A stretch of 64,000 bases of DNA from Bradyrhizobium ivorense (GTDB lineage Bacteria > Cyanobacteriota > Cyanobacteriia > PCC-6307 > Cyanobiaceae), in NCBI GenBank assembly GCA_943368005.1, contig CALRKN020000008.1, positions 75,705-139,704 on the forward strand, in the 5' to 3' direction. Shown here piece after piece: positions 6,210 to 60,557 of the stretch. The translations under genes were made by a program, and so were the position numbers. How positions within the stretch are numbered: the stretch's first letter is position 1; the number at the start of each line of letters is the position of its first letter. The notes under the pieces were generated by a model. That model did no database searches. It was not told the DNA's origin and worked only from the letters and a program-made list of their open reading frames with translations.

Positions 6210-7589
6210 TCAGTTACCGGACAGGATCCGGAACAGCGAGGCCGCATTCAGCAGGGGGCCCAAAGGAGCCACCGCCTGGGCCAGGAAGTCGTTGCCGCGT
6301 GTCCAGCCATTGCGCGGCACGATCACCACGTCGCCGTTGTGGAGAGCGGGGTTCGCCGGTGAATCCAGGGGCGCTGCGGGATCGAACACGATGGTGCGCG
6401 CCGACACGCTGCCATCGCTCTCCAGGCGAAGCAGGCGCATGTCCCGGGGGTTGGCCCGCAGCGGATTCACGTCTCCGGCCGCCATCACGGCAGCGACCAA
6501 AGGACTGTTGGAGCGCACCTGCTGCAGGCCTGGGGTCTTCACCTCTCCCACCACGGTCACACCGATGGTGCCGGGAGCAAAGTTGGAGGCGGCGGTTCGG
6601 ATCAGAACCTGGTTGGGCTGGACCCCTTCGGCCCGGTTCACCTGCACCATGTCGCCGTCATAGAGAAGGGGGTTCACCGTGGTACCTCCCTCCATCAACA
6701 CGCGCAGATAGTCGAAGCGGTACTCCACAGGTGGGCCGCCCGGAATCGCGCTGGGGCGCTGCAGCACGACATTCGAGAGGTCGGCCACGGCGGTGATGCC
6801 CCCCGCCCGTTGCACCGCATCGACCAGCGTGGGCCAGCCGGCACTCTGAATCTGGGTACCCCCCGCCGCCGGACCGGCTGCCTGGAGATTGGCGCTACCA
6901 GGGCCCTGGGTAAGGCTGTAGAAGCCAGGCTTCTGCACTTCGCCCACCATGGTGATCCGCACCGGCCTGGGGGCCAGCAGGTCGAGATACACCAGGGGGC
7001 GGCGCAGGTAGCGGTCGTAACCGGCGGTGATGCGTTGGCGGGCCTCATCCATGGTGAGCCCCCAAACCGGCACAGAGCCCAGCCGCGGCAGGTTGATCGT
7101 GCCGTCGCTGAGCACCTCCACTTCGGCCTCGTAGCCCTCCACCTTGAACACCGACATCCGCAGGCGATCTCCGGGGCCGAGTCGGTAGCGGAAACCCCGG
7201 CCGGGGTCGGTGGACGGGGCCATGGCCACCGGGGACCGGACCAGACCGGGTGCGGGCACGGCTGCGGGCCGCGGGGCGGGAACCGCAACCGGTGCGCGGG
7301 GGGGGCTGGAGGGGGCAGAAGGGGACATGCCGGGCTGGGGAGCCGTCGTCTCCTCCTGCGGGAGGGGGAACACCGGGCGCTGGGGCTGGGCGGCTGCGGG
7401 ATCCCAGGGGCCCAGGAGCGTGACGGCAGCCAGCCATCCGGCCAGGGACCCAGGTACGACGGCTCGAGGACGGGAAGTGGGCAAGGCGGTGCGACGGCAG
7501 TGGGACAGGGGACGGGACGGGGGCTGCAGCTCTCGGCGGGGACTGTCCCAGGCTCTGGTCGAGCTAATCTTCCCGCACCTTGCACCCAA
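6210..7589 (-). CDS. Outer-membrane polysaccharide export protein (OPX; Wza/KpsD-like, Poly_export + SLBB domains)
   Basis: Poly_export block: YRLGPGDRLRMSVFKVEGYEAEVEVLSDGTINLPRLGSVPVWGLTMDEARQRITAGY. Repeated SLBB-like blocks: VGEVQKPGFYSL, VVGEVKTPGLQQV. Hydrophobic signal-like segment: GSLAGWLAAVTLLG. The true start is uncertain; an in-frame TTG near 7470 is possible. Confidence 0.8.
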   Translation of the reverse strand: MGARCGKISSTRAWDSPRRELQPPSRPLSHCRRTALPTSRPRAVVPGSLAGWLAAVTLLGPWDPAAAQPQRPVFPLPQEETTAPQPGMSPSAPSSPPRAPVAVPAPRPAAVPAPGLVRSPVAMAPSTDPGRGFRYRLGPGDRLRMSVFKVEGYEAEVEVLSDGTINLPRLGSVPVWGLTMDEARQRITAGYDRYLRRPLVYLDLLAPRPVRITMVGEVQKPGFYSLTQGPGSANLQAAGPAAGGTQIQSAGWPTLVDAVQRAGGITAVADLSNVVLQRPSAIPGGPPVEYRFDYLRVLMEGGTTVNPLLYDGDMVQVNRAEGVQPNQVLIRTAASNFAPGTIGVTVVGEVKTPGLQQVRSNSPLVAAVMAAGDVNPLRANPRDMRLLRLESDGSVSARTIVFDPAAPLDSPANPALHNGDVVIVPRNGWTRGNDFLAQAVAPLGPLLNAASLFRILSGN

Positions 7590-7627
7590 TCGTGAAGGCG
7601 AAGGAAGGGAGCCCTCCCGGCGGAGCC

Positions 7628-8563
7628 ATGCTGAACCCCCCTGGCCCGGTTTCCCTCCCGCTCCAGCTGGTCGAACGGGAACTTTCCAGCTTTCGCCTGT
7701 ACTCGTCCCAGGGCCTCGACCTCTACCTGCTGCCAGGTGAGCGCTTCGCCCCCTACGCCGATGCGGTGGGCATCCTCAGGGAGCTCACCTACCGCCAGCA
7801 GCTCTCAGGTTCAGGCCACAGCCACGACCTCGACAGCCGGGATCCCCACTACGACCACTTCCTCCTAGTGGAGGGCAGCAGTGGCGAACTGGCCGGTTCC
7901 GCCCGCCTGCAATTCGTGCCCCAGTGCCACGAGGCCGAAGCGGAGCTGCGGCTGCCCCAGGGGTCGCAGTCCTATTTGGAACACGTCTATCCCGGCCTGA
8001 AGGCCTCATTGGCCCGCCAGGGCAACCACTTGGAAATCGGCCGGGTCGCCCTCGCCCCCCGCTTCCAGCGGCTTCCCCACACGCTGATGTGCCTGTTCCG
8101 GGGAGGCCTGCAGGTGGCCGTGAGCTCCGGCTACGGCTCCATTCACGGGTTGGTGTCGTACAACCACTTCGCCCATGCCGATGCCGTGAACGAGCGGTTC
8201 CTGAGCAGCCTGATGCGGCCGCCGTTCCTGGATACCCGCCAACCCTGCCCCCAGCCCCGCCACCCCCTGGAAGCCATCCAGGCCAGCACCAGTCCGGGCC
8301 CGACGCACACGATCCAGGAACTGGAGCAGCTGATCCGCGCCGAATTGGCGCCCTCGTTCCGCCTGCCCGTGCTGCTGCGCCAGTACATCAACCTGATGGA
8401 GGCACGGGTGCGCAACCTCTCCCTGGCCCGCGATTTCAACCAGATCACCGAGATCCTGATGGCCGCCGACCTCAAGCGGATACCCAGTCGTCGCCTCAGC
8501 CATTTCATCGACTTTGCCCATGAGCCCGTCTACCGGCGCTTCAGCTGGTACCGCGGTGGCTGA
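7628..8563 (+). CDS. GNAT-type N-acyltransferase of the OlsB/hemolysin-like family (Acetyltransf_5-like)
   Basis: Blocks line up by eye with OlsB-type enzymes: LRELTYRQQ...DSRDPHYDHFLLV, GSARLQF, LEIGRVALAPRFQR, LPVLLRQYINLMEA, FNQITEILMAADL. ATG at 7628; the track's alternative start is 7580. Confidence 0.65.
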   Translation: MLNPPGPVSLPLQLVERELSSFRLYSSQGLDLYLLPGERFAPYADAVGILRELTYRQQLSGSGHSHDLDSRDPHYDHFLLVEGSSGELAGSARLQFVPQCHEAEAELRLPQGSQSYLEHVYPGLKASLARQGNHLEIGRVALAPRFQRLPHTLMCLFRGGLQVAVSSGYGSIHGLVSYNHFAHADAVNERFLSSLMRPPFLDTRQPCPQPRHPLEAIQASTSPGPTHTIQELEQLIRAELAPSFRLPVLLRQYINLMEARVRNLSLARDFNQITEILMAADLKRIPSRRLSHFIDFAHEPVYRRFSWYRGG

Positions 8564-8620
8564 ACAGCCCCATGCGGACTGGTACGTTTTCATGGATCTG
8601 GAGCTCGGGAAGGGGTTTTG

Positions 8621-8977
8621 ATGCGAGTTGGCCCCGAGCACGAGATCTCCGGAGCTGCCGCGTCCCCCTCCCCAGAGACCGGTCTGATCGACCGGGCCCC
8701 TGCCCTTGACAGGCCGGTGGATCAGGAAGAACTTCAACAGCGGCTGCAGGAAATCCTGCAGCGCATCTCGGGCGCCGATCCCCAGCTGATCACCCCGGAC
8801 GCCCGCCTGATCGAAGACATCGGCATCGATTCGCTCGGGTTCTACGAGATCCTGATCGAGGCAGACGAGTGCCTGGGCATCAAGATCCGCGAGGAAGACC
8901 TGCTCAGCTTCCGCACCGTGGGCGATATTCAACAGCATCTGCGGAGCCTGGAGACCCCTGATGCCCAGGCCCACTGA
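8621..8977 (+). CDS. Stand-alone acyl carrier protein (with about 35-aa N-terminal extension)
   Basis: Phosphopantetheine attachment motif IEDIGIDSLGFYEILIEAD (DSL) within a 4-helix ACP-length core. A GGGAAGGGG purine run lies upstream of the ATG. Confidence 0.8.
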   Translation: MRVGPEHEISGAAASPSPETGLIDRAPALDRPVDQEELQQRLQEILQRISGADPQLITPDARLIEDIGIDSLGFYEILIEADECLGIKIREEDLLSFRTVGDIQQHLRSLETPDAQAH

Positions 8978-10211
8978 ACGCCTGGCGGTCACCGGCTGGG
9001 GGTGCATCACGCCCCTGGGGTTGGGCGTAGAGGCCACCTGGGAAGCCAGCCTGGCCGGTCGCTCCGGCATCTCGGCTGTGGGCGATGACTGGGCAACTGA
9101 TCTGCCCGCCCGGATTGCGGGTCGGGTGTCCGGCGAGTTCAACGCCAACCTTGAGCCGTTGCTGCAACGGCGGCTGGACCGCTGCTCCCAGCTGGCACTG
9201 CTGGCGGCGCGTCAGGCCTGGGCGAACGCTGCTGACCATTGCGGCGGCGTTGATCCCCGTCGCGTCGCGGTGGTGATCGGCACCGGAATCGGTGGACTGG
9301 CCACCCTGGAGCGCCAGCACACCAACCTGCTGCAGGCCGGTCCTGGCCGGGTGAACCCGCTCACCGTGCCGATGTTGATTGCCAACGCGGCGGCCGGCCA
9401 GATCGCCATCGACCTGGGGCTGCACGGCGGAGCCCACACCCCCGTGTCCGCCTGTGCCGCCGGAGCCGAGGCCCTGCTGCTCGCCCAGATGCTGCTGCAG
9501 GACGACCGGGCCGACGTGGTGCTGGCCGGAGGCAGCGAAGCGCCCGTGAACCGGCTTGGACTGGTGGGCTTCGCCGCCATGCGCGCCCTTTCCTGTCGCA
9601 ACGCATCTCCCGAGCTTGCCTCCCGGCCCTATGCCCAGGACCGGGATGGCTTTGTGCTCTCCGAAGGGGCGGGTGTGCTGGTGCTGCAGCGCGCCGCGGA
9701 TCTGGCCAGCTCCACCCCGCCTGTGCATGGCTGGCTCCAGGCCTGCGGCAGCAGCAGCGACGGCCACCACATCGTGGCCCCGGAACCGGATGGGCTGCAG
9801 GCCAGCCAGGCGATCACCGATGCGCTGCGCCGTGCCGGGCTGGATGCCAGTGACCTGTCGTTTGTCCAGGCCCACGCCACCGGCACACCCGTGGGCGACC
9901 TGGCCGAGGCCAGGGCCCTGCGACGCGGCCTAGGCAGCGCCCTGGATTCCCTGCCTGTCACCGCGCCCAAAGGCCAGCTGGGCCATCTGCTCGGGGCGGC
10001 GGGAGCCGTGGAAACGATCCTGGCGCTCCAGGCCCTGCGTCAGGGTGTAGTGCCCCGGAGTGTCAATGCAATTCCCCAGGATCCGGCCGTGGATCTGGCG
10101 GTGGTGAAGGATGGTCCCCTCACTCTGGGTGCCCGGGGGAGCGAACGCTTCGGGCTGAAGAACGCCTTTGGCTTCGGTGGCCACAACATCAGTCTGATCC
10201 TGGCTGCATAA
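8961..10211 (+). CDS. Beta-ketoacyl-ACP synthase (KAS I/II, Cys-His-His type)
   Basis: 416 aa. RLAVTGWGCITPLG, active-site PVSACAAGAEAL, HATGTPVGD, GHLLGAAGAVE, FGFGGHN. The start overlaps the ACP stop by 17 nt. Confidence 0.9.
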   Translation: MPRPTERLAVTGWGCITPLGLGVEATWEASLAGRSGISAVGDDWATDLPARIAGRVSGEFNANLEPLLQRRLDRCSQLALLAARQAWANAADHCGGVDPRRVAVVIGTGIGGLATLERQHTNLLQAGPGRVNPLTVPMLIANAAAGQIAIDLGLHGGAHTPVSACAAGAEALLLAQMLLQDDRADVVLAGGSEAPVNRLGLVGFAAMRALSCRNASPELASRPYAQDRDGFVLSEGAGVLVLQRAADLASSTPPVHGWLQACGSSSDGHHIVAPEPDGLQASQAITDALRRAGLDASDLSFVQAHATGTPVGDLAEARALRRGLGSALDSLPVTAPKGQLGHLLGAAGAVETILALQALRQGVVPRSVNAIPQDPAVDLAVVKDGPLTLGARGSERFGLKNAFGFGGHNISLILAA

Positions 10212-12234
10212 ATGCCGTGGTGCGGGCGTAGTACGCCTGCACCGCGCGCGCAAAGGTCTGGCGATCGCATCCCTGTTCAGCGAGGCCCGGGTCGCCGAGG
10301 CCCAAGTCTGCCGCCCGACCACGGCGGCAATGAATGGTGGCCAACGGAGCCTGCAGCCTGGAGAGCAGCAGACGCAGCGGACGGTAGAGATCCTGGGCGG
10401 ACATGGAAAGCCCGTGATAGGTGAACGTCCAGGGCACGATCAGGGCCCGATGCTTCCTCGCCAACAGCAGGGCACTGGCCGAAACGCGCTCACTGATCGG
10501 CGTGACCAGTGATCCATTCGGCGCCAACATCACCAGTCCCAGCTCTGCCAGGGTGCGGGAGGCCCGATACACCGCGGAGGTGCGCGATCGGCCATCGCGA
10601 TGGTCCAGCAAACCATGGCCGGCATTAGCCGCCGAAGCTCCGAACCAGGGCATGATGCGGCTCAGATGCAAGCTGGCCGTGGTGATGCTGGGCAGCTGAA
10701 GCACGCCCTGTACAACCAGAACATCCACGGGATTTTCATGGTTCCAGATATAAACAACAGCACGTCCAGAAGGCTCACTCGGTTGGCTGTCATCCACCAC
10801 AACAGTTACACCCAAGGCACGTAGGCCCACTTGGGCCGTGCATACCAGGAGCTGGGCTGCCAACCTGCGCTGGCCCAGGGCGAGCGCCAGGAGCTGGATG
10901 CCGTAAATCAGAAAATAGGAAACCCCCAGACCCAGTCGCCAGACCATCCGCCAAGGCACAATCCAGCTCCCCGTCACGGGCGGGCGAGGAGCATCGGGCA
11001 ACCGCGGTGCGGGCGCCAGGCGGCGCGCCTCCGGACCGATCGGGAAAGTGATCCGAAAGGGAAAATCACCATCAAAATTGCCATTCACCTGGGTTGTGGT
11101 CACCAGGTGGGCATAGAAGCGGTAGAAGAGGGGCCGCTCACTGGTCTGGGGGTTCAGCCAGAACTGATCCAGCGGATTCTGATCGGTGAGGCCAGAGAGA
11201 TTGTAGAAGGTGCGACCCATCACCTTGGTGGGAACGGCATGGTAAAGAGCCTGCAGTCCCACCGTGCTGTTCACGGTTACTACACCTCGACAGGTTCGCA
11301 GAAATCGACTGAGAGCGCCATCATGAAAATAATGAACTCTCCCATCAACGCCATAACGACTCGCCATCAACTGGATCAGACGACCATAATTGTTATAGCC
11401 TCGGTCCCGAGGGTGGTGCTTGAAAGCGAGATGGTCTGAAGCATGGGCATGCGTGGCAAACGAGCGAATCACATCTTCGATGAATTCATGCATGCCGCGA
11501 TAGGGAGAACCGAGCTGGATCTGGGAGTCGCTGGACACCTGCAGCACCACCAGAAAAAACGACAAGTGCTCCAGCAGCCGGCGCTTCAACCCACGCTCCT
11601 GCCAGCGATACAGCCAGAAGCGCCAGCTACCCCTCAGTTGGCACCATAAAAAGCGCGGCGATGGCTGCAGCTTATGTTCACCTTCAATAATTGGATATCG
11701 GGTGAATGCGTGCTGGATGAAGGTGGGCGCCTTCCAGATCTTGCGCCAGCGCCAGCCGGGATCAAGGCAGCCGCCCGGCAATTGGTTCACGGGTGGAAGG
11801 CCGCGATAGAACTCAACGGGCCGATTGAGATTGGAGCGCGCATTCACCCGATCCCGTTCCAAACTCACATAATTGGGACGGATATACCCCAACTCAAACA
11901 CCCAGGCCTCCACGCCGGCGCTCTGGGCCTCCTCAATGGCAATGCGATGGGGAATAATGAAGTCCCCATACATAAAGATATGGCGGATACCACGCTCTGC
12001 CAACAGTCGGCGCAGAAAGGGCCGCCATTCCTCCATGCTCCCTGAGAAGGGAACCTTCACCTCCGCAGGAAAACCAAACTCCTGGAGGGGAAAAGCAACT
12101 TTGACAACCGGAATTCCGCAGCCCCGCAAATAGCGACAGAACCGCGCAAAAAACAAGCCGATTGGCCCCATCAGCAACAGCACCGGGCCATCGATCCGCA
12201 CCTGAACCAGAGCTGGAGCCCGATCGCCTGCCAC
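10189..12234 (-). CDS. kpsS: KpsS-like capsule beta-Kdo transferase (Capsule_synth) fused to a C-terminal membrane-anchored HX4D acyltransferase (PlsC/OlsA, LPLAT family)
   Basis: aa 15-395 are KpsS-like: VKVAFPLQEF, HIFMYGDFIIPHRIAIEEA, WVFELGYIRPNYVSLERDRVNARSNL, LQVSSDSQI, FKHHPRD, VVTVNSTVGLQAL. A Pro-rich linker and a TM follow (WRMVWRLGLGVSYFLIYGIQLLALAL). Then come IWNHENPVD (HX4D, aa 499-504), APNGSL (FPEGT-equivalent) and LIVPW. Confidence 0.8.
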   Translation of the reverse strand: MAGDRAPALVQVRIDGPVLLLMGPIGLFFARFCRYLRGCGIPVVKVAFPLQEFGFPAEVKVPFSGSMEEWRPFLRRLLAERGIRHIFMYGDFIIPHRIAIEEAQSAGVEAWVFELGYIRPNYVSLERDRVNARSNLNRPVEFYRGLPPVNQLPGGCLDPGWRWRKIWKAPTFIQHAFTRYPIIEGEHKLQPSPRFLWCQLRGSWRFWLYRWQERGLKRRLLEHLSFFLVVLQVSSDSQIQLGSPYRGMHEFIEDVIRSFATHAHASDHLAFKHHPRDRGYNNYGRLIQLMASRYGVDGRVHYFHDGALSRFLRTCRGVVTVNSTVGLQALYHAVPTKVMGRTFYNLSGLTDQNPLDQFWLNPQTSERPLFYRFYAHLVTTTQVNGNFDGDFPFRITFPIGPEARRLAPAPRLPDAPRPPVTGSWIVPWRMVWRLGLGVSYFLIYGIQLLALALGQRRLAAQLLVCTAQVGLRALGVTVVVDDSQPSEPSGRAVVYIWNHENPVDVLVVQGVLQLPSITTASLHLSRIMPWFGASAANAGHGLLDHRDGRSRTSAVYRASRTLAELGLVMLAPNGSLVTPISERVSASALLLARKHRALIVPWTFTYHGLSMSAQDLYRPLRLLLSRLQAPLATIHCRRGRAADLGLGDPGLAEQGCDRQTFARAVQAYYARTTAFMQPGSD

Positions 12235-12286
12235 CGTTCCCTCACCCTTGCTCTGCAGGGCCCAACTTTGCCACGTGGCGCAGGGT

Positions 12287-14257
12287 TCAACGCCGGCGCA
12301 ACCGCCCCCAGTGGCGGAAGATGCGCTGCCGCAGGCTCAGGGGTTCGGGCGGGGCGGACCGCCAGGCCAGCAACTCCTCGATCGCCTGCTCCGGCTCGAT
12401 GAACAGGCCGCTGTGGCGGCTCACATAGCGGGGGTAGTCGATCAGCGCCGCATGCACGAGGGCATCCAACTCCAGGGAGCGACCGCGCCGTTCACAGCGG
12501 AGCCTGTCGTGGCTCAGACCCCAGCCCGCATAGAAGGGCAGTCCCCAGGTGTGCACCTCGAGTCCGCGGAGCAGGGCCTCAAAGCCGGCGATCGAAGTGA
12601 GCACATGCAGGGCATCGATCTGGGTGAAGAGTTGCTGAATCGAGGCTTCGAACAGCACCTCATCGCAGCCCTGGGCCACCTGGGCCTCGCCCACCCCCTG
12701 GCGACACAGGCCTGCCACCACATCGGGATGGGGCTTGTATACGAGATAGGCGTCGGGTTCCGCCTGGCGCACCGCCGCCACCAGCTCCAGGTTGCGGGCG
12801 ACACCCGGTGCCCCCAGCCGGATGGAGGCATCCGACTCCACCTGCCCCACCACCAGCACCACCCGCCCGGCCGCGGCGGGACGCTGCCAGGCGGGAGCCC
12901 GGAGGTTGTATTTGGTAATCGCCTGGCTCACCAGCTGGCGGCGCAGCTCGGCCGCCCGTCGCAGCTGGCCCTCACTCCAGCTGCCATGGGCCAGCAGGTG
13001 CTCCAGGTCACTGGGGGCTGTGGCGTCGTAGTAGATCCCGCGACGGTCCAGCACCCAGGAGATGGGATCGATCAGATCGGCCCCCAGACCCACCGAGCGC
13101 AGGAAGCCGTCCTCCACATGCAGCAGCGCCAGCCGGCGATGTTCCACCTGCCGGAGCAACCGGGTGCTGGCCCGGCGACCCCAGATCGCCACCAGGGCAG
13201 CGGAGCGGCCCGGGCGCTGCCAGGAAAAGCGAAACCGCAGCGGCGGACCCGCCAGGAAACGACGCAGCACCCGCTGCTTCCACGGGGTGAAACCGAAGGC
13301 CTCCACCGGCCCGGGCTGGGCCAGCCGCAGGCGGCGCTGCAGGCCGATGGCGGCGATCAACTGTTCCGGCGTGCAGGGCTGGTGGCGATGGGGATCGATG
13401 TACACCGCCGACTCCACCAGGGCGGCATGCACCAGGTCGGCCAGCTGCGGCGACTCCCCCTGCTGGCGGCGCCGCGGAGCCGCCAGGGCATCCGTCGTGA
13501 GTCCCCAGCCTGCATAGAACGGCAGGCCGAAGCAGTGCACCGGCCGCCCGCAGAGGAGGGCCTCGAAGCCCAGCTGGGACGTGACCACATACACCGCCTC
13601 AGCGCGCTCTAGCAGGGCAATGGGATGGCCGCCGCTGGCCTCAAGCACGATGCGGGGATCCGCCAGCTGCCGGCGGCTGAAGTGGCCGCGCTTGCGGCCG
13701 GCCACCACATCCGGGTGGGTCTTGACCACCACCCGGCAGTGCGGATGGGAGGCCAGCGCCGCCGTGAGCATGGCGCCGAACTGTGGTGCCGAGGCCGCAC
13801 CGAGGCGGATCGAGAGGTCTCCGGCGGTCTGGTCGACCACCAGCACGTAGGGCCCTGACGGAGCGGGCGCCTCCGCCGCCCCGTTGTACTTGCTCACCCG
13901 CTGCTCTCGCCAGAGCTGCTGCAGACCCAGGGCACGCTCCCGCTCGGCGGTGCTGTGGGGTCGGGCAATCCGCTGCTCCAGGCGGCTGGGCACCGAGGCG
14001 TCGTAGTAAACGCCCAAGTCATCGAGCAGCAACCCCAGGGGTGCGCTATCCGGCCCCAGCCCCAGCGATCGCACCAGGGCATCTTCACAGCGCCAGAGGG
14101 GCAGGCCGCGGGTGGCCGCCAACTGTTCAGCTACACGGGCACTGGGCTTGCGGCCCCAGGCCAGCAGGGCATCGAGGGGCTCGCGGCGGCAGCGACGATG
14201 GCCGCACACCAGAGTGTGGGGTGCCAGCAGGGCCGGCAGGGTGCTGTGCCGAAGCAT
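12287..14257 (-). CDS. kpsC: KpsC-like capsule polysaccharide biosynthesis protein (two tandem Capsule_synth domains)
   Basis: Duplicated blocks: WGRKPSA...EDALVRSLGLG...GLLLDDLGVYYDAS and IWGRRAS...VEDGFLRSVGLGADLIDPISWVLDRRGIYYDAT. Each is followed by V(V)DQ..D.SI and KxHPDVVAG. The start is taken at the Met of MLRHSTLP (14257); the track ORF extends to 14494. Confidence 0.8.
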   Translation of the reverse strand: MLRHSTLPALLAPHTLVCGHRRCRREPLDALLAWGRKPSARVAEQLAATRGLPLWRCEDALVRSLGLGPDSAPLGLLLDDLGVYYDASVPSRLEQRIARPHSTAERERALGLQQLWREQRVSKYNGAAEAPAPSGPYVLVVDQTAGDLSIRLGAASAPQFGAMLTAALASHPHCRVVVKTHPDVVAGRKRGHFSRRQLADPRIVLEASGGHPIALLERAEAVYVVTSQLGFEALLCGRPVHCFGLPFYAGWGLTTDALAAPRRRQQGESPQLADLVHAALVESAVYIDPHRHQPCTPEQLIAAIGLQRRLRLAQPGPVEAFGFTPWKQRVLRRFLAGPPLRFRFSWQRPGRSAALVAIWGRRASTRLLRQVEHRRLALLHVEDGFLRSVGLGADLIDPISWVLDRRGIYYDATAPSDLEHLLAHGSWSEGQLRRAAELRRQLVSQAITKYNLRAPAWQRPAAAGRVVLVVGQVESDASIRLGAPGVARNLELVAAVRQAEPDAYLVYKPHPDVVAGLCRQGVGEAQVAQGCDEVLFEASIQQLFTQIDALHVLTSIAGFEALLRGLEVHTWGLPFYAGWGLSHDRLRCERRGRSLELDALVHAALIDYPRYVSRHSGLFIEPEQAIEELLAWRSAPPEPLSLRQRIFRHWGRLRRR

Positions 14258-51996: not shown

Positions 51997-52009
51997 ACCG
52001 GGGGAACGC

Positions 52010-52546: not shown

Positions 52547-52571
52547 GCCGACGGGTGTGAAGGCCCCAACT

Positions 52572-54059
52572 CTATGGGGCCAGCCATGGGGCCAGGCCAG
52601 CCAGATCGGAGCGAGGCTCAGCCCCGGCAGCCCGCAGACGCCGCAGGACCGCCCGCTCCAGTGCCACCAGGGGAGGATCACTCCAGGGCTCGAATCCGCC
52701 GGACCAAAGACCCTCTTCGGCGATCAGATCGGCGCCCTGATCCAGGGGTGGGCTGAAGGGAGCCTCAACCAGCAGCCACTGCCACTGCACACCCTCTGGC
52801 AGGGGCAGTTCCCGCACGGCGGGCTCCCACTCCAACGGCGCCCACAGCTGGAGGGGGGCGGCCGCCTGCAGGACCTCCAGCCAACCGGGCGGCCACTGGG
52901 GCGCGTTGGGCCAGCCCGGGCCGAACACGTCGGGATCGGCCAGCAGCAGGTGGCGGCTCTCCAGTCGCTCCGGGGCCGCGACCGCAAACCGCCCCGGGTC
53001 GGCCACCAACAGGGCGGGCCCCACTGGCAACGGTGACGCCGCAGCCTGGGTCTGCCGATGCAGCGCCAGACGCCAGACCCGCAACTGTTCGCGGTAAATG
53101 CGATTCCAGAGAAGGGGGTCAGCCACGGCCGTGCTGCGCTGCTCGCCCGGTTCGGGCTCCAGCCAGGGCCAGGTGAGCCAGGGTTTGGGGCCGGCAAAAT
53201 GAATCACCGACAAGCCTTCGGCGCAACCCCCGAGGAACTTCACCAGATACTTCACATTGCAATTGAAGTTCAATGGCATCAAGTCAACGGGTTGATCTAC
53301 GAGGAAAAGATTCCACACTTTCTGATCAGCAAAGCGATCCAACAGGGGGCATACCGGCTCAGCTGCCCGCTCGATCAGCCGTTCAAAACGGTGCTGCTCG
53401 GCATCGCACAGCGACCAGCCGGGCACGGAGAGCACACCGGAATTCAGCACGGGGCGCTGGGTGAACGGCGAGATAGCTGCCCAAGGCCGATCTCCGCAAT
53501 CCGGCACCGCGCGGAACTGCTCACCCTCAGCCCAGAGCGGATCGAGGGCAGCGGTGATCAACAGATCCGCGTCCAGCACCACCACCCGCCGATACCCCCG
53601 CAGCGCGAAGGCCTGGCCATTGAGATAACCGAGCATGCCGATCCGCTGGCGATTGCGCGAATCGGTGGGCACCTGCGCAGCCCAGTCTGGCTGGGGCTGA
53701 ACAAAGTGAATCGCTGGGTGAATGGTTTCCAGCCTGCGCTGGAGAAAGGAACCCAGGCTGCCGTCGTGCACCACCCACACCGGAGCGGTGAGCTGGGGAT
53801 ACGTCGCCCGCAGACTCAGAAGCATGGCCTCCAGTCCCCGGTAGAAGCGATCGTTGGCAACCGTGAGGAATGCCACGTTCGGCCCAGGGTCTAGGGGGTC
53901 GAAGCAACGGTGGTGGCGACTGGGCCAGTGCAAGTCCCCCAGGAGCTCCTGTTCACTGCGACGCAGCGGCCCCCCCCGCAAACGCAACTGCTCAGCCTGT
54001 TGCCGGGCAGCCTGCTCCAGCTCCCGACGACAGAGCCAGCCGTAGGCATCTTCACTCAA
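52572..54059 (-). CDS. Glycosyltransferase family 8 domain protein (495 aa)
   Basis: NVAFLTVANDRFYRGLEAMLLSLRATYP, VVVLDADLLITAALDPLW (DxD), VIHFAGPKPW. The TTG start overlaps the kpsE stop by 4 nt. Confidence 0.75.
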   Translation of the reverse strand: MSEDAYGWLCRRELEQAARQQAEQLRLRGGPLRRSEQELLGDLHWPSRHHRCFDPLDPGPNVAFLTVANDRFYRGLEAMLLSLRATYPQLTAPVWVVHDGSLGSFLQRRLETIHPAIHFVQPQPDWAAQVPTDSRNRQRIGMLGYLNGQAFALRGYRRVVVLDADLLITAALDPLWAEGEQFRAVPDCGDRPWAAISPFTQRPVLNSGVLSVPGWSLCDAEQHRFERLIERAAEPVCPLLDRFADQKVWNLFLVDQPVDLMPLNFNCNVKYLVKFLGGCAEGLSVIHFAGPKPWLTWPWLEPEPGEQRSTAVADPLLWNRIYREQLRVWRLALHRQTQAAASPLPVGPALLVADPGRFAVAAPERLESRHLLLADPDVFGPGWPNAPQWPPGWLEVLQAAAPLQLWAPLEWEPAVRELPLPEGVQWQWLLVEAPFSPPLDQGADLIAEEGLWSGGFEPWSDPPLVALERAVLRRLRAAGAEPRSDLAGLAPWLAP

Positions 54060-55375
54060 CGGCGATCAACAATCCCAAGAACAAACGAACTGAGTCCCCA
54101 GACCACAACCAATCCCCCCAGGCTGGCCAGAAAACCCTGCCAGCGCCAGTCGATGTACTGCAGTTCGGGCAAGACCGGCTCAGCCAGCCGCACCAAGAAC
54201 TTCACCTGCTTCTGGCTGTTCTGACGACTGTTGTTTGCCGCTGTGATCGCTGATTTGAGCGCTTCGGTGGCCAGCACCACCTCCGTCTCCAGTTTGGAGC
54301 CCTCGGCCACCACCCGGTTCAGGTCCCGGCCTTCCGGATTCACCAGCTCGGCACGCTCCTCCTGAATCAGACGCTCCAATTCACGGACCTGATCGGTGAT
54401 GTAGGCAACTTCAGGCGTGGAGTGGTCCTTGAACTGACGCTTGAGGCTGGCTTCCTGAACCCTCAGATCCACCAACTGGCTTTCCAGAGCCGTGATGTAG
54501 CTGGTAGTGCCGGCGGCTGACTGGGCTGGGTCCAGCTCACCGTACTGATTCTTGAACGCATTGAACGCCAGCAGGGCCCCATCCAGGCGCTGACGGGACC
54601 GTTGCACTTCCTGCTCGGCAAACCGCTGCTGGGTGGTACTGATGCTCTGGTTCACACGGTTGAGAAAGACTTCGGCCTCCTCAAGCAACAATTGGTTGAG
54701 ACGAAAAGCAGGTTCGGGAGCCAGGCCAATGGTGGAGAGATTGATCACCCCCGTGAGGTCCTGGGGAACCACGAACACCTGGCGCCGAAAGAACGCGATC
54801 TGCTGGTCGAGATTGGCGTCCTGACGCAGGCCAGCAAAGGGGTCCCGGCTATCGCGAGCCCAGGTCTTCTCCGGGTTGAGGCGGAGAAACACCCGCTTCA
54901 TCACCTCCGGGGAAGTGAGATACACCGCCAGGAATCTGCCATCTTCCAGGGAACCGAGCATGGTGGGGCCGGCCAGGGTAGTGCCCAGCAAACTGGAACC
55001 CGTGCTCGCCGGCGCCTCCGGCAGCCGCACAATGAAACTGGACTCAACCTGAAAACGGTTCCGGCCGATCGAAAAGAAATAAACCGCCGAACCAACGGCT
55101 ACGAGGCCCGCCATGATCAGGGGCCAGGGCAGGCGGATCACAGGCTCCAGCGGAGCTTTCAAACGCTGCCGCAAACTGAGGCCCGTCACTGAAGGGTTTC
55201 GCACGATGGGAGTGGCTTCAGTTTCCGGGTCAGAGCCACGTCTAGACCGCATGGAGTGCGAGCCCATGGCGGCGATCCAGCGCTGCAGAGGATGGATCAC
55301 GATGCGAGATGCGCGGCGATGGAGAGAAGGCAACGGGTTGCGGGAAATGCGGGAACGAAACGACTGGATCACCAT
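54056..55375 (-). CDS. kpsE: Capsule polysaccharide export inner-membrane protein KpsE (PCP-3)
   Basis: N-terminal TM (WPLIMAGLVAVGSAVYFF), FQVESSFIVR block, a long coiled periplasmic region, and a C-terminal TM (GFLASLGGLVVVWGLSSFVLGIV). Located next to kpsM. Confidence 0.8.
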   Translation of the reverse strand: MVIQSFRSRISRNPLPSLHRRASRIVIHPLQRWIAAMGSHSMRSRRGSDPETEATPIVRNPSVTGLSLRQRLKAPLEPVIRLPWPLIMAGLVAVGSAVYFFSIGRNRFQVESSFIVRLPEAPASTGSSLLGTTLAGPTMLGSLEDGRFLAVYLTSPEVMKRVFLRLNPEKTWARDSRDPFAGLRQDANLDQQIAFFRRQVFVVPQDLTGVINLSTIGLAPEPAFRLNQLLLEEAEVFLNRVNQSISTTQQRFAEQEVQRSRQRLDGALLAFNAFKNQYGELDPAQSAAGTTSYITALESQLVDLRVQEASLKRQFKDHSTPEVAYITDQVRELERLIQEERAELVNPEGRDLNRVVAEGSKLETEVVLATEALKSAITAANNSRQNSQKQVKFLVRLAEPVLPELQYIDWRWQGFLASLGGLVVVWGLSSFVLGIVDRR

Positions 55376-55494
55376 GTCACCACCACACCGAATAGCACTT
55401 CATGGTAACAGTTGATACCAAGAGAGAAGAACCCATAACCAGGAGAGAAGCTTTATACACCTGGATCAGACTTGTCCACCGGGACACATCACAC

Positions 55495-56337
55495 TCACAC
55501 ATCATCAGCATCATCCGAATCAGACTGGGCCTTGTCCACAGCAAACAACAATTCCTCGTTGTTGCCATAGATAAACAAACCTAGCCCTACGGAGCCGACC
55601 ACCCAGGCCCAGAAGTAAGGCGCGCTGACTCCTGGAGCGGGGTAGGAAGGGCTAGCGGCGATTCTCATCAATTCAATCCCGTGGGCGATCGGATTCCACA
55701 GAATCCAGGGCCGCACCACATCAGGCACGAAGCTGATGGAGAAAAAAACGCAGGAAGTCCAGAGCAAGATGCGCCTCAGGAACATCTTTACAACCCAAGC
55801 GACGAAGGGCAAGCGATGGCCAATGATCAACGTAACCAGACCAACTCCAAATCCGAGCATGGAGATACCGATGAACAAGAACACAGCATGGCCAATGTCT
55901 TGCACGGCAAATTGCCACTCCCACAGAGAAACTCCAAACACAAAAGCGAGCACAAGCAAGCCAAAGATTTGAGACAAAAGCAGCGTATTGCCCAGCAAAG
56001 AGTCCAAGGGCTTTAAGCGGCGATAAAAATAGAGTTCGCTATTCTTTTCAACGCCACTGATTGCCTTAATTGCAATATCTGAAAACATGAAAAAAGGAAC
56101 GAACCCCAGCGCCATCCAAAGCACCGCGTTCATGTAGTGGTCATCTCCGGACCCTCCCAGAAAAATCCGCAGGGCGAGAAAAGTGGCGATCAAAGCAAGA
56201 GGCTCAATAAAAACCCCCACCAGGCCGAAGGTACCCTTCTTGGCCCGCAATTGCATTTCCCGACGCGCCACCGCGCCAACCACCCGCAGCTGCAGCAACA
56301 ACTGGGACAACACAAGCCTGGGGGTGACGCGCCGCAT
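55495..56337 (-). CDS. kpsM: Capsule polysaccharide ABC-2 type transporter permease KpsM
   Basis: The start at MRRVTPRLVLSQLL overlaps the upstream stop by 1 nt (TGATG). Six hydrophobic spans give ABC-2 topology: FGLVGVFIEPLALIATFLALRIF, FGLLVLAFVFGVSLW, GISMLGFGVGLVTLIIG. GC is lower than in the neighbours. Confidence 0.85.
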   Translation of the reverse strand: MRRVTPRLVLSQLLLQLRVVGAVARREMQLRAKKGTFGLVGVFIEPLALIATFLALRIFLGGSGDDHYMNAVLWMALGFVPFFMFSDIAIKAISGVEKNSELYFYRRLKPLDSLLGNTLLLSQIFGLLVLAFVFGVSLWEWQFAVQDIGHAVFLFIGISMLGFGVGLVTLIIGHRLPFVAWVVKMFLRRILLWTSCVFFSISFVPDVVRPWILWNPIAHGIELMRIAASPSYPAPGVSAPYFWAWVVGSVGLGLFIYGNNEELLFAVDKAQSDSDDADDV

Positions 56338-57407
56338 CAGGGAACTGACCCTGCCTGAACAGCCATCGTAGGGGTGCTGCGCTGCAGCGCCCGGGCCAGG
56401 TGCCGGTTCTGGCTGGCCAGATCCAACAGAGCACTTCGCACCAGCTCCTCCAGCCTCTGGCGCTCCGTACCATCCGCCGGAGGCTCGAACACACGCCGGT
56501 AAAAGGGCAGCTCCGGCATCCGCTGCCGCCAGGGGCAGCCCCACACCTGCAGGGCAAAGGCATCGTTCGCGCTGGCGTAGTGGGCCGCAACCGCAGCGGC
56601 GGCCGGGGCATCAAAGCCGCAATAGCGATCCTGCTGCCAGCCCTCCCGCTCGGCAATCCGCCGCACCGGATCTCTCGCATTGGCCAGGGAGCGCCCCTCG
56701 ATCCCCAGCTCATCGAGCTGCTCACCAATCCGCTGGGCCAGCCACACGCCCCCCGAACCAGGCTGCACGTTCCCCTTGTCCGGGTCGGCCGGACGCCAGC
56801 CGCCCTCAGGTGGAAGGTGCCCCAGGGTGGTCAGGAGGCGATCGAACGGATCTCCCCAGGAACTCCCGTAGGGCAGGAAGGTGCAACGGATGCGCGAATC
56901 ATCAATTAAAGCAGAAAAGAGATGGTTGTAGTCGTAGATATGGCGACGCTCGACCAACTGACATTCAACATAGGCATCAAAAGATTGATGGTGGTAAAGC
57001 CGACGAGTGGAATGGACAAAGCGTGCGTTGATGTAATCCGGCTGATCCCTCAGAAACAACAGCACGTGCAGCCCGAAGCCCTCCGCCTCGAGCAGATCCG
57101 TCAGGGCTCGATGACGACGGCGGTTAGCCAGTGGTTGGGTGAACTGCTCCCCGCTCACGAGCACCAGCTCTCCCGTGGGGGGCAAACCGCGCAGATACCG
57201 GATCCACTCGGGCCAGGCACGCTTGGCCAGGGCGGCGGCTAGGGGCTTATGTTTCTGTGCTGGGGTGCCTGGGTAGCGAAGCAGTACCCCGGCACGCTCC
57301 AGCTCGGCACCGTTGGCCGCCATGCGGCTCTGGATGTAGGAACTGGCGGTTTTGTGGGTGCCGGCATGGATCACCAACCAGCGTTTCTGAGCTGCCATCG
57401 GGGTCAA
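56337..57407 (-). CDS. Hypothetical protein, sulfotransferase-fold-like (family B, copy 1)
   Basis: 356 aa. WLVIHAGTHKTASSYIQ resembles a PAPS 5'-PSB loop (K-x-G/A-S/T-S/T). LFLRDQPDYINARFVHS resembles a 3'-PB motif. Paralog of 59526..60557. ATGA overlap with kpsT-like upstream and TGATG overlap with kpsM downstream. Confidence 0.6.
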   Translation of the reverse strand: MTPMAAQKRWLVIHAGTHKTASSYIQSRMAANGAELERAGVLLRYPGTPAQKHKPLAAALAKRAWPEWIRYLRGLPPTGELVLVSGEQFTQPLANRRRHRALTDLLEAEGFGLHVLLFLRDQPDYINARFVHSTRRLYHHQSFDAYVECQLVERRHIYDYNHLFSALIDDSRIRCTFLPYGSSWGDPFDRLLTTLGHLPPEGGWRPADPDKGNVQPGSGGVWLAQRIGEQLDELGIEGRSLANARDPVRRIAEREGWQQDRYCGFDAPAAAAVAAHYASANDAFALQVWGCPWRQRMPELPFYRRVFEPPADGTERQRLEELVRSALLDLASQNRHLARALQRSTPTMAVQAGSVP

Positions 57408-58264: not shown

Positions 58265-58320
58265 GGCAGTGGAGCAACCCTAGCCTGGGTGCCCAACCCC
58301 ACTTGCCCAGCGGCACGCCC

Positions 58321-59535
58321 GTGACCCTTCTCCGTCGCCGCCAGCTGCTGATCGGGCTTGCCAGCGCCGGGCTGGCCGGCTCCCTGGCCAGGCAGCAATC
58401 GGCCCTGGGCCGTCCGTCGAATCTGGATGGGCGCCTGCTCAGCCTGCCGTTCGTTTCGGGCGAGGGCGGCTACAGCTGTTACCGCACCCCTGGGCTGGCG
58501 GTGAGCGCCCAGGACACGGTGCTGGCCTTCTGCGGCGGCCGGGTAGATGACTGCGGGGACGAGGGCAATATCGATGTGCTGCTGCGGCGCTCCAGCGATG
58601 GCGGCCGCAGCTGGGGCCCGCTGCAGGTGATCGCCAACGACGGGCCCAACCCCTGCAAGATTCCGCTGCCGGTGGTGTTGCCCGGGGGGCGGATTCTGCT
58701 GCTCTGGCTCTGGAATGCCTCGGTGGCGCGGGAGGCCGATCGGGGCACACGGTATGTACGCATCACCCATTCCGACGATGACGGCCGCAGCTGGGTTCCC
58801 TCCCGCGACATCACCGACCAGGTGCGACTACCTGGCTGGAAGTCCTGGTACGGGATCGGCCCGGGCCATGGAATCGTGAAACTGCTGGAACCGGCTGCCG
58901 GCCGGATCGTGGTGCCAGCGCGCCACAGCGTTCCCGGCCTGGGCGGGGCCTCCCACCTGCTGCTCTCCGACAACGGCGGCCTGAGCTGGCGGGTGGGCGC
59001 CGTGGCAGGTTTCCGGCCGTCCAGCGAATGCGCAGTGGCGGAACTGGGCGATGGCAGCTTGATGCTGAACAGCCGCAGCGGTGGCCAGCGGGTGGTGAGC
59101 ATCAGCCGGGACGGCGGCGAGACCATGGCCAGCAGCGGGCCGGAGCCCCAGCTGATCGAGCCAGCCAATGGCTGTCAGGCCAGCTTGCTCACCTACGCCT
59201 TTACGGCCAACCGTCAGGCCCTGCTGCTGTTCGCCAATCCGGCCGATGCGCAGCACCGCACCAACGGCCGACTGCGCCTCAGCCGTGACAACGGCCGGCG
59301 CTGGAGCCGGGGCTTCGCCTATGACCAGGGGCCGGGCAGCTTCAGCGGCTACAGCGACCTGGCCCGCTTCGCCAATGGCGACGTGGCCCTGCTAGCGGAA
59401 TCCGGAGCCAGCTTCGCCAAGGTCCGCGGCGCAGACAAGCGGCGCAACCGCCAGCTCCTGGACGGCCGGGGCGATCGGCGCCACGACGGCATCGCCTTTC
59501 AGCGGATTCCCTTTGCGCTGGTGGCTCAGGCCTGA
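58321..59535 (+). CDS. Exo-alpha-sialidase (GH33, BNR/Asp-box beta-propeller) with Tat signal peptide
   Basis: GTG at 58321 gives (M)TLLRRRQLLIGLASAGLAGSLA, a twin-arginine signal. RIP-like motif: CYRTPGL. Five Asp-boxes: SSDGGRSW, SDDDGRSW, SDNGGLSW, SRDGGETM, SRDNGRRW. The track ORF begins at 58183 and would overlap kpsT. Confidence 0.85.
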   Translation: MTLLRRRQLLIGLASAGLAGSLARQQSALGRPSNLDGRLLSLPFVSGEGGYSCYRTPGLAVSAQDTVLAFCGGRVDDCGDEGNIDVLLRRSSDGGRSWGPLQVIANDGPNPCKIPLPVVLPGGRILLLWLWNASVAREADRGTRYVRITHSDDDGRSWVPSRDITDQVRLPGWKSWYGIGPGHGIVKLLEPAAGRIVVPARHSVPGLGGASHLLLSDNGGLSWRVGAVAGFRPSSECAVAELGDGSLMLNSRSGGQRVVSISRDGGETMASSGPEPQLIEPANGCQASLLTYAFTANRQALLLFANPADAQHRTNGRLRLSRDNGRRWSRGFAYDQGPGSFSGYSDLARFANGDVALLAESGASFAKVRGADKRRNRQLLDGRGDRRHDGIAFQRIPFALVAQA

Positions 59536-60557
59536 TCGGCCAGCGGGGCCTCCTGCAGGCCAGCGGCGAGCAATTGGTCGACCAGGGCGAGCATCTGGCG
59601 GCGCTCCTCAGGGCTGCGGGGCCGCACGGGGCTGGCCTGGGGGGTGGGCCGGGGAAACAGCTCCCGCCAGTCGCAGCCCCAGACGCGGCGGGCAAAGCGG
59701 TCGTTGCTGGCGCCATAGCGGCGCTCGATGCGGGCAAGCAAAGGCTCATGGAGCCCCTGGAAAGGCTCGGCCGGCCAGCCCTGCTCAACGGCCAGCCGCT
59801 CCAGCTGCTCCCGGATCCGGGCCTTGCAGGAACTGCTGTTCCAGGCCATCGGGTACTGCTCAGCCAGCCGGCGGGCGATGCGCTGGGCAATCCAGACGGC
59901 CTGCCAGCCCGGTTGCACATTGGTCCCTTCGCTCAGGTGCCGCAGACCTTCGAGATCCGACACGCCCACCGCCTGCAGCAGCCGCTCACAGGGGTCCGCC
60001 TCGCCGGTGCGGAAGGGCAGGAAGCGGCACTGCACCTCGGGGCGATCCAGCACGTCCGCGAACAGCTCCAGGTAATCGCAGTTGCTCTCCCCACCTGTGC
60101 GCATGGTTTGCATCACATAGCGGGGGAAGGAAACAGCCAGATAGAAGCGCTTGAGCAGCTGGGTATAGCGGGAATTGAGGTAGGTGGGCTGATCCCGCAC
60201 GAAGGCCACCAGCTCCAGGCCCATGCCGGAGCGGTTGAGCAGGTGCAGCAGGTCGCCAAGCAGGCTGCCTTCACCGCCGCACCCCGGTTCCGTGAGCACG
60301 AGGGAAAGGATCTCCGCCGACACCAGCGGGCGACAGCCCTGGCGTTGGGCCTTGTGCAGCAGCTGCTCCCAGGGCTGGAGATCCCCCTGCCGCAGGGCCT
60401 TCACCAGCTCGAGGTGGTCGCAGCGGCGCTTGGGGTAGAGCAGTCGCTGCTGGCGCAGAAACGGCTGATTGCTCTTCAGCCGGTGCTGGATGTAGGTGGA
60501 CGCCGTCTTGTGGATGCCCACATGCAGGATCAGGGAGCGTGCGTCCACCCGTTGCAC
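59526..60557 (-). CDS. Hypothetical protein, sulfotransferase-fold-like (family B, copy 2)
   Basis: 343 aa. LILHVGIHKTASTYIQHRL and AFVRDQPTYLNSRYTQ. Collinear with 56337..57407, including C-terminal ASNDRFARRVWGCDWRELFP versus ASANDAFALQVWGCPWRQRMP. Confidence 0.6.
   Translation of the reverse strand: MQRVDARSLILHVGIHKTASTYIQHRLKSNQPFLRQQRLLYPKRRCDHLELVKALRQGDLQPWEQLLHKAQRQGCRPLVSAEILSLVLTEPGCGGEGSLLGDLLHLLNRSGMGLELVAFVRDQPTYLNSRYTQLLKRFYLAVSFPRYVMQTMRTGGESNCDYLELFADVLDRPEVQCRFLPFRTGEADPCERLLQAVGVSDLEGLRHLSEGTNVQPGWQAVWIAQRIARRLAEQYPMAWNSSSCKARIREQLERLAVEQGWPAEPFQGLHEPLLARIERRYGASNDRFARRVWGCDWRELFPRPTPQASPVRPRSPEERRQMLALVDQLLAAGLQEAPLADQA

Follow-up and report, generated by a model that had tools for sequence, protein, structure and literature searches.

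What drives a capsular polysaccharide out of the cell when the presumed motor subunit of its exporter has lost the motifs of an ATPase? The question is raised by a 64,000-nucleotide stretch of contig CALRKN020000008.1 (the window, throughout this text), whose backbone is picocyanobacterial, Cyanobium-like and 68% GC (guanine plus cytosine), and which holds a Kps-type capsule locus of 54 kb where the permease KpsM is accompanied by a homolog of the presumed motor, KpsT. Picocyanobacteria are among the most abundant phototrophs, and their surface polymers influence grazing, phage adsorption, aggregation and carbon export. A first-pass annotation had predicted export dependent on an ATP-binding cassette (ABC) transporter, and this stands in so far as KpsM, KpsE and an outer-membrane polysaccharide export (OPX) protein are all present, but the KpsT homolog lacks Walker A, signature, Walker B and H-loop motifs in all 95 members of its family. 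Very probably, then, the window carries the picocyanobacterial Kps cluster with a pseudo-ATPase as its KpsT, and no ATPase encoded in the locus powers export. The locus itself is catalogued; the new element is that the presumed motor subunit is predicted to be a conserved pseudo-ATPase lineage-wide. Either the missing ATPase is supplied from another place in the genome, or KpsMT-type export runs without ATP, and the latter, if true, would alter the understanding of ABC-transporter-dependent polysaccharide export.

The KpsT homolog and its ATPase motifs

Genes in the window were chosen by codon-position GC, at a base composition that breeds many spurious open reading frames (ORFs); the chosen ORFs were scanned against Pfam and NCBIfam, and selected proteins against PDB sequences. 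The export components are listed below, PDB entry 8TSH being the E. coli group 2 KpsMT-KpsE machine (Kuklewicz and Zimmer, 2024, PMC11041684).

57404-58264, minus strand: KpsT homolog, a predicted KpsT-derived pseudo-ATPase with a degenerate ABC nucleotide-binding domain (8TSH_A, E=1e-16 over residues 37-234)
55495-56337, minus strand: KpsM permease (NCBIfam KpsM, 92 bits over 3-254/257; 8TSH_C, E=7e-17)
54056-55375, minus strand: KpsE, PCP-3 (TIGR01010, 149 bits; 8TSH_E, E=2e-36)
6210-7589, minus strand: OPX, KpsD-like outer-membrane protein (Poly_export, SLBB and SLBB_2 domains, with two SLBB), adjoining purB in two relatives (L033 and L034)

Against Pfam ABC2_membrane, KpsM scores 24.3 bits, slightly below the 26.9-bit cut-off. 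The locus combines a KpsM-type ABC-2 permease, PCP-3 (KpsE) and OPX partners, KpsS and a dual-module KpsC (the last two described below), and the profile searches support the KpsC, KpsS, KpsE and KpsM assignments made from the first reading of the sequence.

With the AlphaFold2 model of the KpsT homolog as query (predicted local distance difference test, pLDDT, 87; predicted template modelling score, pTM, 0.78), Foldseek returned KpsT at rank 1 (8tsl_A) and rank 10 (8tsh_A), with TagH and Wzt between them, at template modelling (TM) scores of 0.80-0.82 when normalised by target length. The same protein has no match to Pfam ABC_tran (PF00005) at E<=0.001, and a precomputed PF00005 match is found in 0 of its 94 homologs, which share 41-94% identity; the next matches, at about 28% identity, are ordinary ABC ATPases, and these canonical proteins do carry the PF00005 match. 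A column census of the 95 family members and 10 canonical relatives gave the following.

Walker A: GRNGAGKST in canonical KpsT, AVNGPESRA in the window protein; Lys in 0/95 of the family and 10/10 canonical proteins
Signature: YSSGM in canonical KpsT, WPNAQ in the window protein; Gly in 1/95 and 10/10
Walker B and catalytic Glu: IDE in canonical KpsT, VGR in the window protein; Asp in 0/95 and 10/10, Glu in 2/95 and 10/10
H-loop: His in canonical KpsT, Asn (ANGQ) in the window protein; His in 0/95 and 10/10

The replacements are themselves conserved, with Glu or Asp at the third P-loop glycine (92/95) and Arg or Lys at the position of the catalytic Glu (90/95). In an exhaustive profile search of 1.84 billion representatives, Walker A is missing from the roughly 20 clusters (at 50% identity) that score to E ~1e-30, and canonical KpsT proteins begin only below that level. 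Motif loss extends to divergent branches, where kpsT also lies beside kpsM and kpsE (L025, L026 (Vulcanococcus), L027 (a marine Synechococcus metagenome-assembled genome, MAG), L035 and L036). The KpsT of proteobacterial loci (L028-L030) has GRNGAGKS, YSSGM and YLVDE. We scanned loci L001-L030 for ABC ATPases, taken as ORFs of at least 120 amino acids in which a Walker A is paired with an ABC signature: of the 29 cyanobacterial-type loci, 28 have none within 10 kb, and the exception is L025. Within the window, neither a G..G.GK[ST] Walker A nor an LSGGQ motif occurs in any of the six frames.

The ratio of nonsynonymous to synonymous substitution rates (dN/dS) of kpsT is 0.071 against the closest relative, L031 (dS 0.21), and 0.095 against L001, values comparable to the 0.056 of the core helicase; it is 0.10 for KpsM and 0.20 for KpsE. 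A decaying pseudogene is ruled out by the kpsT values (0.07-0.10) and by the conserved replacement residues. Three segments are retained in the homolog (SVSWPLG, KLSGYxNARFAAExYS and LAVSLAFDFDV), and their counterparts surround the contact surface with the membrane subunit in other ABC transporters; further features of the family are an acidic tail and a C-terminal helix that is long and charged. As judged from these sequences, the KpsT homolog is a pseudo-ATPase in the whole lineage, held under strong purifying selection.

Locus L025 (CALRKZ020000008.1, binned as a Mesorhizobium carmichaelinearum MAG) holds at 8500-13800 a BNR gene, a degenerate kpsT, the u356 gene (both neighbours are described below), kpsM and kpsE. 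Its KpsE and BNR proteins are 55% identical to those of the window, and two ordinary ABC ATPase ORFs lie 6-8 kb away. This locus reflects either a binning error or a degenerate system outside cyanobacteria.

The pseudo-ATPase status of picocyanobacterial KpsT appears to be unreported: in the literature searched, nothing relevant came up on a degenerate KpsT or on Kps export independent of ATP. Surveys of KpsT based on PF00005, such as that of Pereira et al. (2015, PMC4594306), will miss these proteins, and annotation pipelines that name them "ATPase component" overstate knowledge.

Energy for polymer export

In the mechanism that we propose, KpsS and KpsC would place a ulosonic-acid linker on a lipid acceptor made or remodelled by the cluster, glycosyltransferases would lengthen an acidic, sulfated and methylated heteropolymer in the cytoplasm, and KpsM, KpsE and OPX would constitute the export conduit. 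The ATG of u356, the gene between kpsT and kpsM, lies 5 nucleotides past the kpsT stop, and the kpsM start overlaps the u356 stop as TGATG; this arrangement predicts that kpsT is translationally coupled to the downstream u356 and kpsM. Since the subunit coupled to kpsM is precisely the degenerate one, in which neither half of the composite site survives, we prefer ATP-independent export, which we rank first while giving it somewhat less than an even chance: a dimer of pseudo-KpsT would hold KpsM as a channel or scaffold, and the inside-negative membrane potential, polymerisation or both would drive the polyanion outward. The fuller proposal is doubtful as a whole, namely a Kps-type exporter without ATP hydrolysis, where an acidic/basic pair fills the pseudo-KpsT pocket, KpsM is locked, a sulfated ulosonic-acid polymer is driven by membrane potential and/or polymerisation, and this polymer is perhaps carried on a cluster-made, possibly phosphorus-free lipid. 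A phosphorus-free anchor lipid could fit the enrichment of the cluster in phosphorus-poor waters.

Several points weigh against this overall reading of the locus. To our knowledge, no KpsMT, Wzm-Wzt or TarGH transporter offers a precedent for ATP-independent export, and we know of no experiment that demonstrates a Kps-dependent capsule in any picocyanobacterium. KpsT diverges faster across lineages (29-35% identity) than KpsM or KpsE (39-55%). It is uncertain which sugar forms the linker, the sole cytidylyltransferase being apparently nearer to PseF than to KdsB, with no kdsA or kpsF in the window. Finally, the ATPase scans covered the window and the compared loci, and the chromosome may encode a canonical KpsT/Wzt-type ATPase at another site.

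Such an ATPase, whether a second KpsT or an O-antigen Wzt, might bind KpsM, either by itself or paired with the degenerate subunit in a heterodimer, and power export as in E. coli. This explanation, ranked second, finds some encouragement in the well-known heterodimeric ABC transporters with one degenerate site, in the apparently functional sequences of KpsM, KpsE, OPX, KpsC and KpsS, and in the confinement of our searches to the window and individual loci. However, Walker A, Walker B, H-loop and signature are all lost, so that a heterodimer would be without a fully consensus site, and the gene predicted to be translationally coupled to kpsM is the degenerate one. Moreover, in the accessible part of the Cyanorak phyletic tables kpsT is the sole entry named ATPase component that has the pattern of the cluster, some entries of the P-loop NTPase superfamily sharing this pattern, and the neighbourhoods of all cyanobacterial-type loci scanned except L025 are free of ABC ATPases, as given above. 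A borrowed ATPase is possible on this evidence but seems unlikely. Least probable, and ranked third, is an export relic, in which KpsM and pseudo-KpsT would be a scaffold or regulator of the biosynthetic complex and the product would leave by another route or be retained at the inner membrane: the loss of every ATPase motif and the faster evolution of KpsT across lineages agree with it, but the strong purifying selection on KpsT, KpsM and KpsE, the full envelope set of KpsM, KpsE and OPX retained in every locus, and the conserved replacement residues, which point to a new constrained function and not to decay, make it very unlikely.

Organisation and history of the locus

Pfam, NCBIfam and PDB searches place the OPX, kpsS, kpsC, kpsE, kpsM and kpsT-like genes where the first-pass annotation had put them and in the families that it had named. 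Its description of the layout was also borne out: the conserved genes are split to the two ends, and the locus totals about 15 glycosyltransferases, two sulfotransferases, two methyltransferases and NeuA/NeuB-type genes, found between them (Pfam). This co-localisation of multiple families is too great for chance, and the gene content agrees with the lipid-anchored, sulfated, methylated, ulosonic-acid polymer that had been predicted. Inward from the OPX gene, the left end holds the following.

7580-8563, plus strand: OlsB/OlsF-type (Acetyltransf_5) N-acyltransferase (PF13444, E=3e-10; NCBIfam OlsF C-terminal domain, 308-569/570, E=8e-13), corresponding to Cyanorak CK_00002156 of the Kps cluster
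8618-8977, plus strand: dedicated acyl carrier protein (ACP) with a DSLG motif (NCBIfam ACP models, E ~1e-15), true start probably near 8720
8961-10211, plus strand: FabF2, a beta-ketoacyl-ACP synthase II paralog (ketoacyl-synt N and C domains; TIGR03150, 411 bits)
10189-12234, minus strand: KpsS (GT107 beta-Kdo transferase-like) fused to a PlsC-type acyltransferase (Capsule_synth, 194 bits; NCBIfam KpsS, 273 bits over 14-387/390)
12287-14494, minus strand: KpsC, dual GT107 module (Capsule_synth, 267 bits; PDB 6MGC (KpsC-N), E=1e-59; 6MGD (KpsC-C), E=2e-63)
14437-15390, plus strand: CMP-ulosonic acid synthetase, NeuA/PseF-like (CTP_transf_3, beginning at residue 81), true start probably near 14630
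15387-16679, 16690-17727 and about 17733-19043, plus strand: three tandem DUF6716 putative glycosyltransferases (PF20471, E=2e-56, 2e-13 and 2e-53)
19040-21364, plus strand: putative ulosonic acid synthase, a fusion of CBS, NeuB (259 bits), SAF and xylose-isomerase-like TIM barrel (AP_endonuc_2) domains
21361-22137, plus strand: Sulfotransfer_2 sulfotransferase (Pfam)
22207-23037, plus strand: Sulfotransfer_1/3 sulfotransferase (Pfam)
23067-26519, minus strand: GT2+RgpF protein of 1150 amino acids (Pfam), inner end of the conserved left module
26587-27306, plus strand: u239, with no assigned family, inner end of the conserved left module

The C-terminal part of the KpsS fusion matches Acyltransferase PF01553 over residues 488-601 (28.7 bits, cut-off 23) and retains an intact HX4D motif (NHENPVD), as in PlsC and other lysophospholipid acyltransferase (LPLAT) domains; the fusion is kept in more than 100 picocyanobacterial clusters. 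With the QXXXD and HP motifs of GT107 defined as in PMC10148158, KpsS carries QVSSD and HHP, and both modules of KpsC retain the QXXXD nucleophile (QTAGD and QVESD), the HP motifs and the general-base Glu, so that the GT107 catalytic motifs of both proteins are predicted to be intact. The ACP, for which a PP-binding gene stands at the same position in L033 and L034, together with FabF2, the OlsB-like enzyme and the PlsC domain, suggests a lipid acceptor that is built or remodelled by the cluster itself.

As for the ulosonic acid, the cytidylyltransferase scores 107 bits against PseF and at most 43 bits against the KdsB models (NCBIfam), and the synthase 305 bits against NeuB_NnaB and 228 bits against PseI. 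Among the window ORFs scanned we found no SIS (kpsF) or KdsA domain and no clear kpsU for the supply of CMP-Kdo (3-deoxy-D-manno-octulosonic acid). Since no NeuC-, PseB/C- or LegB/C-type genes lie near the NeuB fusion, nor any aminotransferase or dehydratase gene accompanying it, the gene content hints at a deaminated nonulosonic acid resembling Kdn (3-deoxy-D-glycero-D-galacto-nonulosonic acid) or at a self-contained precursor route. The four-part architecture of the fusion (CBS pair, NeuB, SAF and TIM barrel) is unusual, and it is retained in L033 and L034, as are the three DUF6716 genes. The DUF6716 proteins were considered as GT107-like ulosonic-acid transferases, but they lack the QXXXD and HP motifs and are kept as putative glycosyltransferases.

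The right end holds, besides kpsE, kpsM and kpsT, the following.

46928-54059: conserved glycosyltransferase module, with GT316, GT2 (820 amino acids), GT8 (260 amino acids), GT1_2 (332 amino acids) and GT8 (495 amino acids) (Pfam)
56337-57398, minus strand: u356, a conserved protein with a P-loop-like HKTASS motif, between kpsT and kpsM (AlphaFold2 pLDDT 93; 87 picocyanobacterial homologs)
58318-59535 (start approximate), plus strand: BNR, sialidase-fold protein with a twin-arginine (Tat) signal LLRRRQLLIGLASAGLAGSLA (BNR_2, E=1e-29)
59526-60557, minus strand: u343, a paralog of u356 (BLASTP, 34% identity, E=2e-43), syntenic in relatives
60580-61110, minus strand: DUF1997 protein (PF09366; Cyanorak CK_00002307 of the Kps cluster)

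The BNR gene is divergent from kpsT and its position is kept in most loci; a scan of the divergent region for promoters and terminators found nothing. Its product may be a periplasmic ulosonic-acid hydrolase, a depolymerase or a polymer-trimming enzyme, as far as the domain and signal indicate.

u356 has no match in Pfam, NCBIfam or PDB sequences, and its top Foldseek matches are P-loop kinases, weak at E ~1e-3 and TM <0.4; the model is possibly that of a divergent sulfotransferase or kinase fold. u356 and u343 share the motifs HxGxHKTAS[ST]YIQ and RDQPxYxN, and their HKTASS and RDQPDY stretches resemble the loops by which sulfotransferases bind PAPS (3'-phosphoadenosine 5'-phosphosulfate), a resemblance that we treat as a lead only. 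As sulfotransferases the two proteins were rejected, since hhalign against the two sulfotransferases of the window gave a probability below 1%, and among 34 members of the u356 family searched against Pfam only single members matched Sulfotransfer_1/3, at a non-significant E=0.04-0.08. Rejected, too, was u356 as a replacement ATPase, the gene being absent from L005, L022, L023 and L035, with a null PDB search and the weak Foldseek matches just given. In four loci (L015, L018, L020 and L024) a Sulfotransfer_1/3 homolog lies directly upstream of kpsT, and in 0/4 of them is there a u356 gene between kpsT and kpsM; L015, L020 and L024 have a u356-like gene beside that sulfotransferase, and L018 has a u343 homolog nearby. 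Such placement, and the absence of the gene in some loci, make u356 an unlikely motor, and the gene context links the family, tentatively, to polymer modification rather than to transport.

Against L031, dS is 1.17 for kpsM and 0.33 for kpsE, above the 0.07-0.21 of their neighbours, from which we deduce that these alleles were replaced by recombination; local GC at kpsM-kpsE (54056-56337) is about 58%.

Between the two ends, at 27303-46900, lies a variable cassette with genes on both strands, recognised from its Pfam matches, its low-GC blocks and its absence in L015 and L024.

27303-28262, 28259-30634, 33952-36615, 36570-37646 and 40924-42342: GT1-type genes (Pfam)
45021-46310: GT61 (Pfam)
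31095-32039 and 43221-43976: methyltransferases (Pfam)
32128-33588, 38913-40931 and 42326-43093: ORFs with no assigned family

Low-GC blocks stand out against the 68% background at 31.0-33.8 kb (49-58% GC) and at 38.9-46.7 kb (43-50% GC). The second block (38900-46700) contains a protein of 672 amino acids of no assigned family, a GT1, another such protein of 255 amino acids, a methyltransferase and GT61; between divergent genes, about 1 kb of it (43976-45021) is poor in ORFs. In L015 and L024, homologs of the 820-residue GT2 directly adjoin those of u239 and of GT2+RgpF, therefore the 27.3-46.9 kb segment is absent there.

Outside the cassette, gene order is shared widely. A KpsT-family profile scan of species-representative genomes gave 24 loci, and the right-end order (helicase, DUF1997, u343, BNR on the opposite strand, kpsT, u356, kpsM, kpsE, GT8, GT1_2, (GT8), GT2, GT316) is kept in about 15 Cyanobium/Prochlorococcaceae genomes at 55-92% protein identity; the glycosyltransferase module is syntenic at 60-90% identity in L001, L003, L007-L011, L016, L031 and others. 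Even the divergent L035, whose helicase is 81% identical, has helicase, DUF1997, kpsT, kpsM and kpsE at the equivalent site. The left-end order (ftsW, ccdA, resB, queF, tlyA, purB, OPX, GNAT, ACP, fabF2, KpsS::PlsC, KpsC, neuA, three DUF6716, NeuB fusion, sulfotransferase) is common to the window, its close relative L033 and Cyanobium sp. NS01 (L034, CP047940.1). In NS01 (7688-12052) kpsC is inverted relative to kpsS, whereas the two are co-oriented in the window and L033. KpsM, KpsE and OPX are kept together in every locus compared.

An accessory island between core genes had been proposed, and this holds for the roughly 27-47 kb segment, which is variable, but not for the ends, which many relatives carry in conserved order at the equivalent chromosomal position. 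The stronger form of that proposal, a hypervariable purB-to-helicase interval recently filled by horizontal transfer, draws on the low-GC blocks (43-58%), on the segment missing from L015 and L024, on the allele replacement at kpsM and kpsE, and on the accessory distribution of the cluster among marine Synechococcus clades (PMC7522525). On the other hand, about 35 of the 54 kb keep their gene order and chromosomal position among Cyanobium-type genomes whose protein sequences differ by 30-40%, GC is host-like over most of the locus, and, as had been noted from the start, mobility genes are missing: no integrase or transposase domain was found among the window ORFs scanned (Pfam), and no tRNA in the tRNA scan. 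An Rfam scan of the window matched no family. A recent island is hence rather unlikely; given the synteny and the host-like GC outside 27-47 kb, only the middle cassette fits that description, and this part of about 20 kb alone appears, from its gene content and distribution, to act as an exchangeable serotype region. The region 1/2/3 logic of group 2 capsule loci, invoked earlier, applies in broad terms, but the conserved ends measure about 21 kb and 14 kb, much more than regions 1 and 3 of E. coli, and include biosynthetic genes.

Of the flanks that had been taken as core genes, purB and the helicase are so, but the DUF1997 gene travels with the cluster, being invariably between the helicase and the kps genes in the loci compared and listed as a member in Cyanorak. 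The left flank consists of ftsW, ccdA, resB, queF, a tlyA-like gene and purB, and the right flank of the DUF1997 gene followed by a DSHCT helicase. The long ORF containing purB (3839-6157, plus strand) is over-extended, with the Lyase_1 domain beginning at residue 348 and purB of relatives encoding 366-431 amino acids; its 5' part overlaps the real FtsJ/S4 (tlyA-like) gene on the opposite strand (3635-4504, minus strand). A glnB (P-II) ORF likely lies at 3288-3626 (plus strand), by analogy with the P-II gene at the equivalent position in L034.

Comparison with known systems

The locus is the catalogued picocyanobacterial Kps cluster, Syn_GI125, and not a discovery: comparative genomics has described it twice. 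In Synechococcus clades III and WPC1, Doré et al. (2020, PMC7522525) reported 12 consecutive genes resembling E. coli K1 kps, and Doré et al. (2023, PMC10119275) judged the cluster to be most like the kps loci of E. coli groups 2 and 3. In the accessible parts of these sources, the cluster corresponds to eCAGs 008-009 in Cyanorak, its supplementary list comprises kpsD, an acyl-CoA N-acyltransferase, an ACP-domain protein, fabF2, kpsS, kpsC, neuA, CK_00002160, DUF1997, kpsM, kpsE and kpsT, and the Syn_GI125 islands listed include those of Cyanobium PCC7001 and NS01; the same parts call kpsT "ATPase component" and do not mention a degenerate nucleotide-binding domain. KpsS and KpsC have a confined distribution within cyanobacteria (Pereira et al., 2015, PMC4594306). 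All the listed genes are present in the window, CK_00002160 probably being the DUF6716 genes, which are matched by name and position only, and the NS01 locus agrees with the window gene for gene. Compared with the catalogued cluster, the version in the window is a large one (54 kb) of freshwater Cyanobium type, to which a cassette of about 20 kb is added.

With E. coli group 2 loci the window shares KpsM, KpsE, OPX, KpsS, a dual-module KpsC with QXXXD and HP motifs, and the arrangement of conserved ends around a serotype-type middle. It differs from them in a KpsT without Walker A, signature, Walker B and H-loop, in the lack of kpsF and of a clear kpsU, in the fusion of KpsS to a PlsC-type acyltransferase with an added ACP, FabF2 and OlsB-like enzyme, and in ends that also hold biosynthetic genes, the Tat-signal BNR protein and two paralogous proteins of no assigned family.

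The lipid genes recall the rhizobial K-antigen (rkp) systems, where KpsC/KpsS-like proteins and KpsMTE-like export are found with fatty-acid or polyketide-type genes thought to build a special lipid carrier, and where the polymers contain Kdo or nonulosonic acids. RkpA is a large protein resembling a polyketide synthase (PKS), and RkpT is, as far as is known, a normal ATPase. The window appears to resemble the rkp-1 region, with a discrete ACP and ketoacyl synthase II instead of a PKS-like RkpA. OlsB/OlsA (OlsF) aminolipid synthesis offers another parallel, in the combination of an Acetyltransf_5 N-acyltransferase (matching the OlsF C-terminal domain), a PlsC-type O-acyltransferase and an ACP; however, the score of the window protein is far under the OlsF family cut-off (48 vs 620 bits), and the O-acyltransferase is fused to KpsS.

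Closest to the question of the motor are the heterodimeric ABC exporters with one degenerate site (CFTR, TM287/288 and TAP), in which the degenerate subunit still binds ATP. These and the window KpsT have in common a nucleotide-binding domain with non-consensus catalytic residues that is kept under selection, but there a single composite site is degenerate, whereas the window KpsT polypeptide has lost all motifs, and therefore no consensus site can form.

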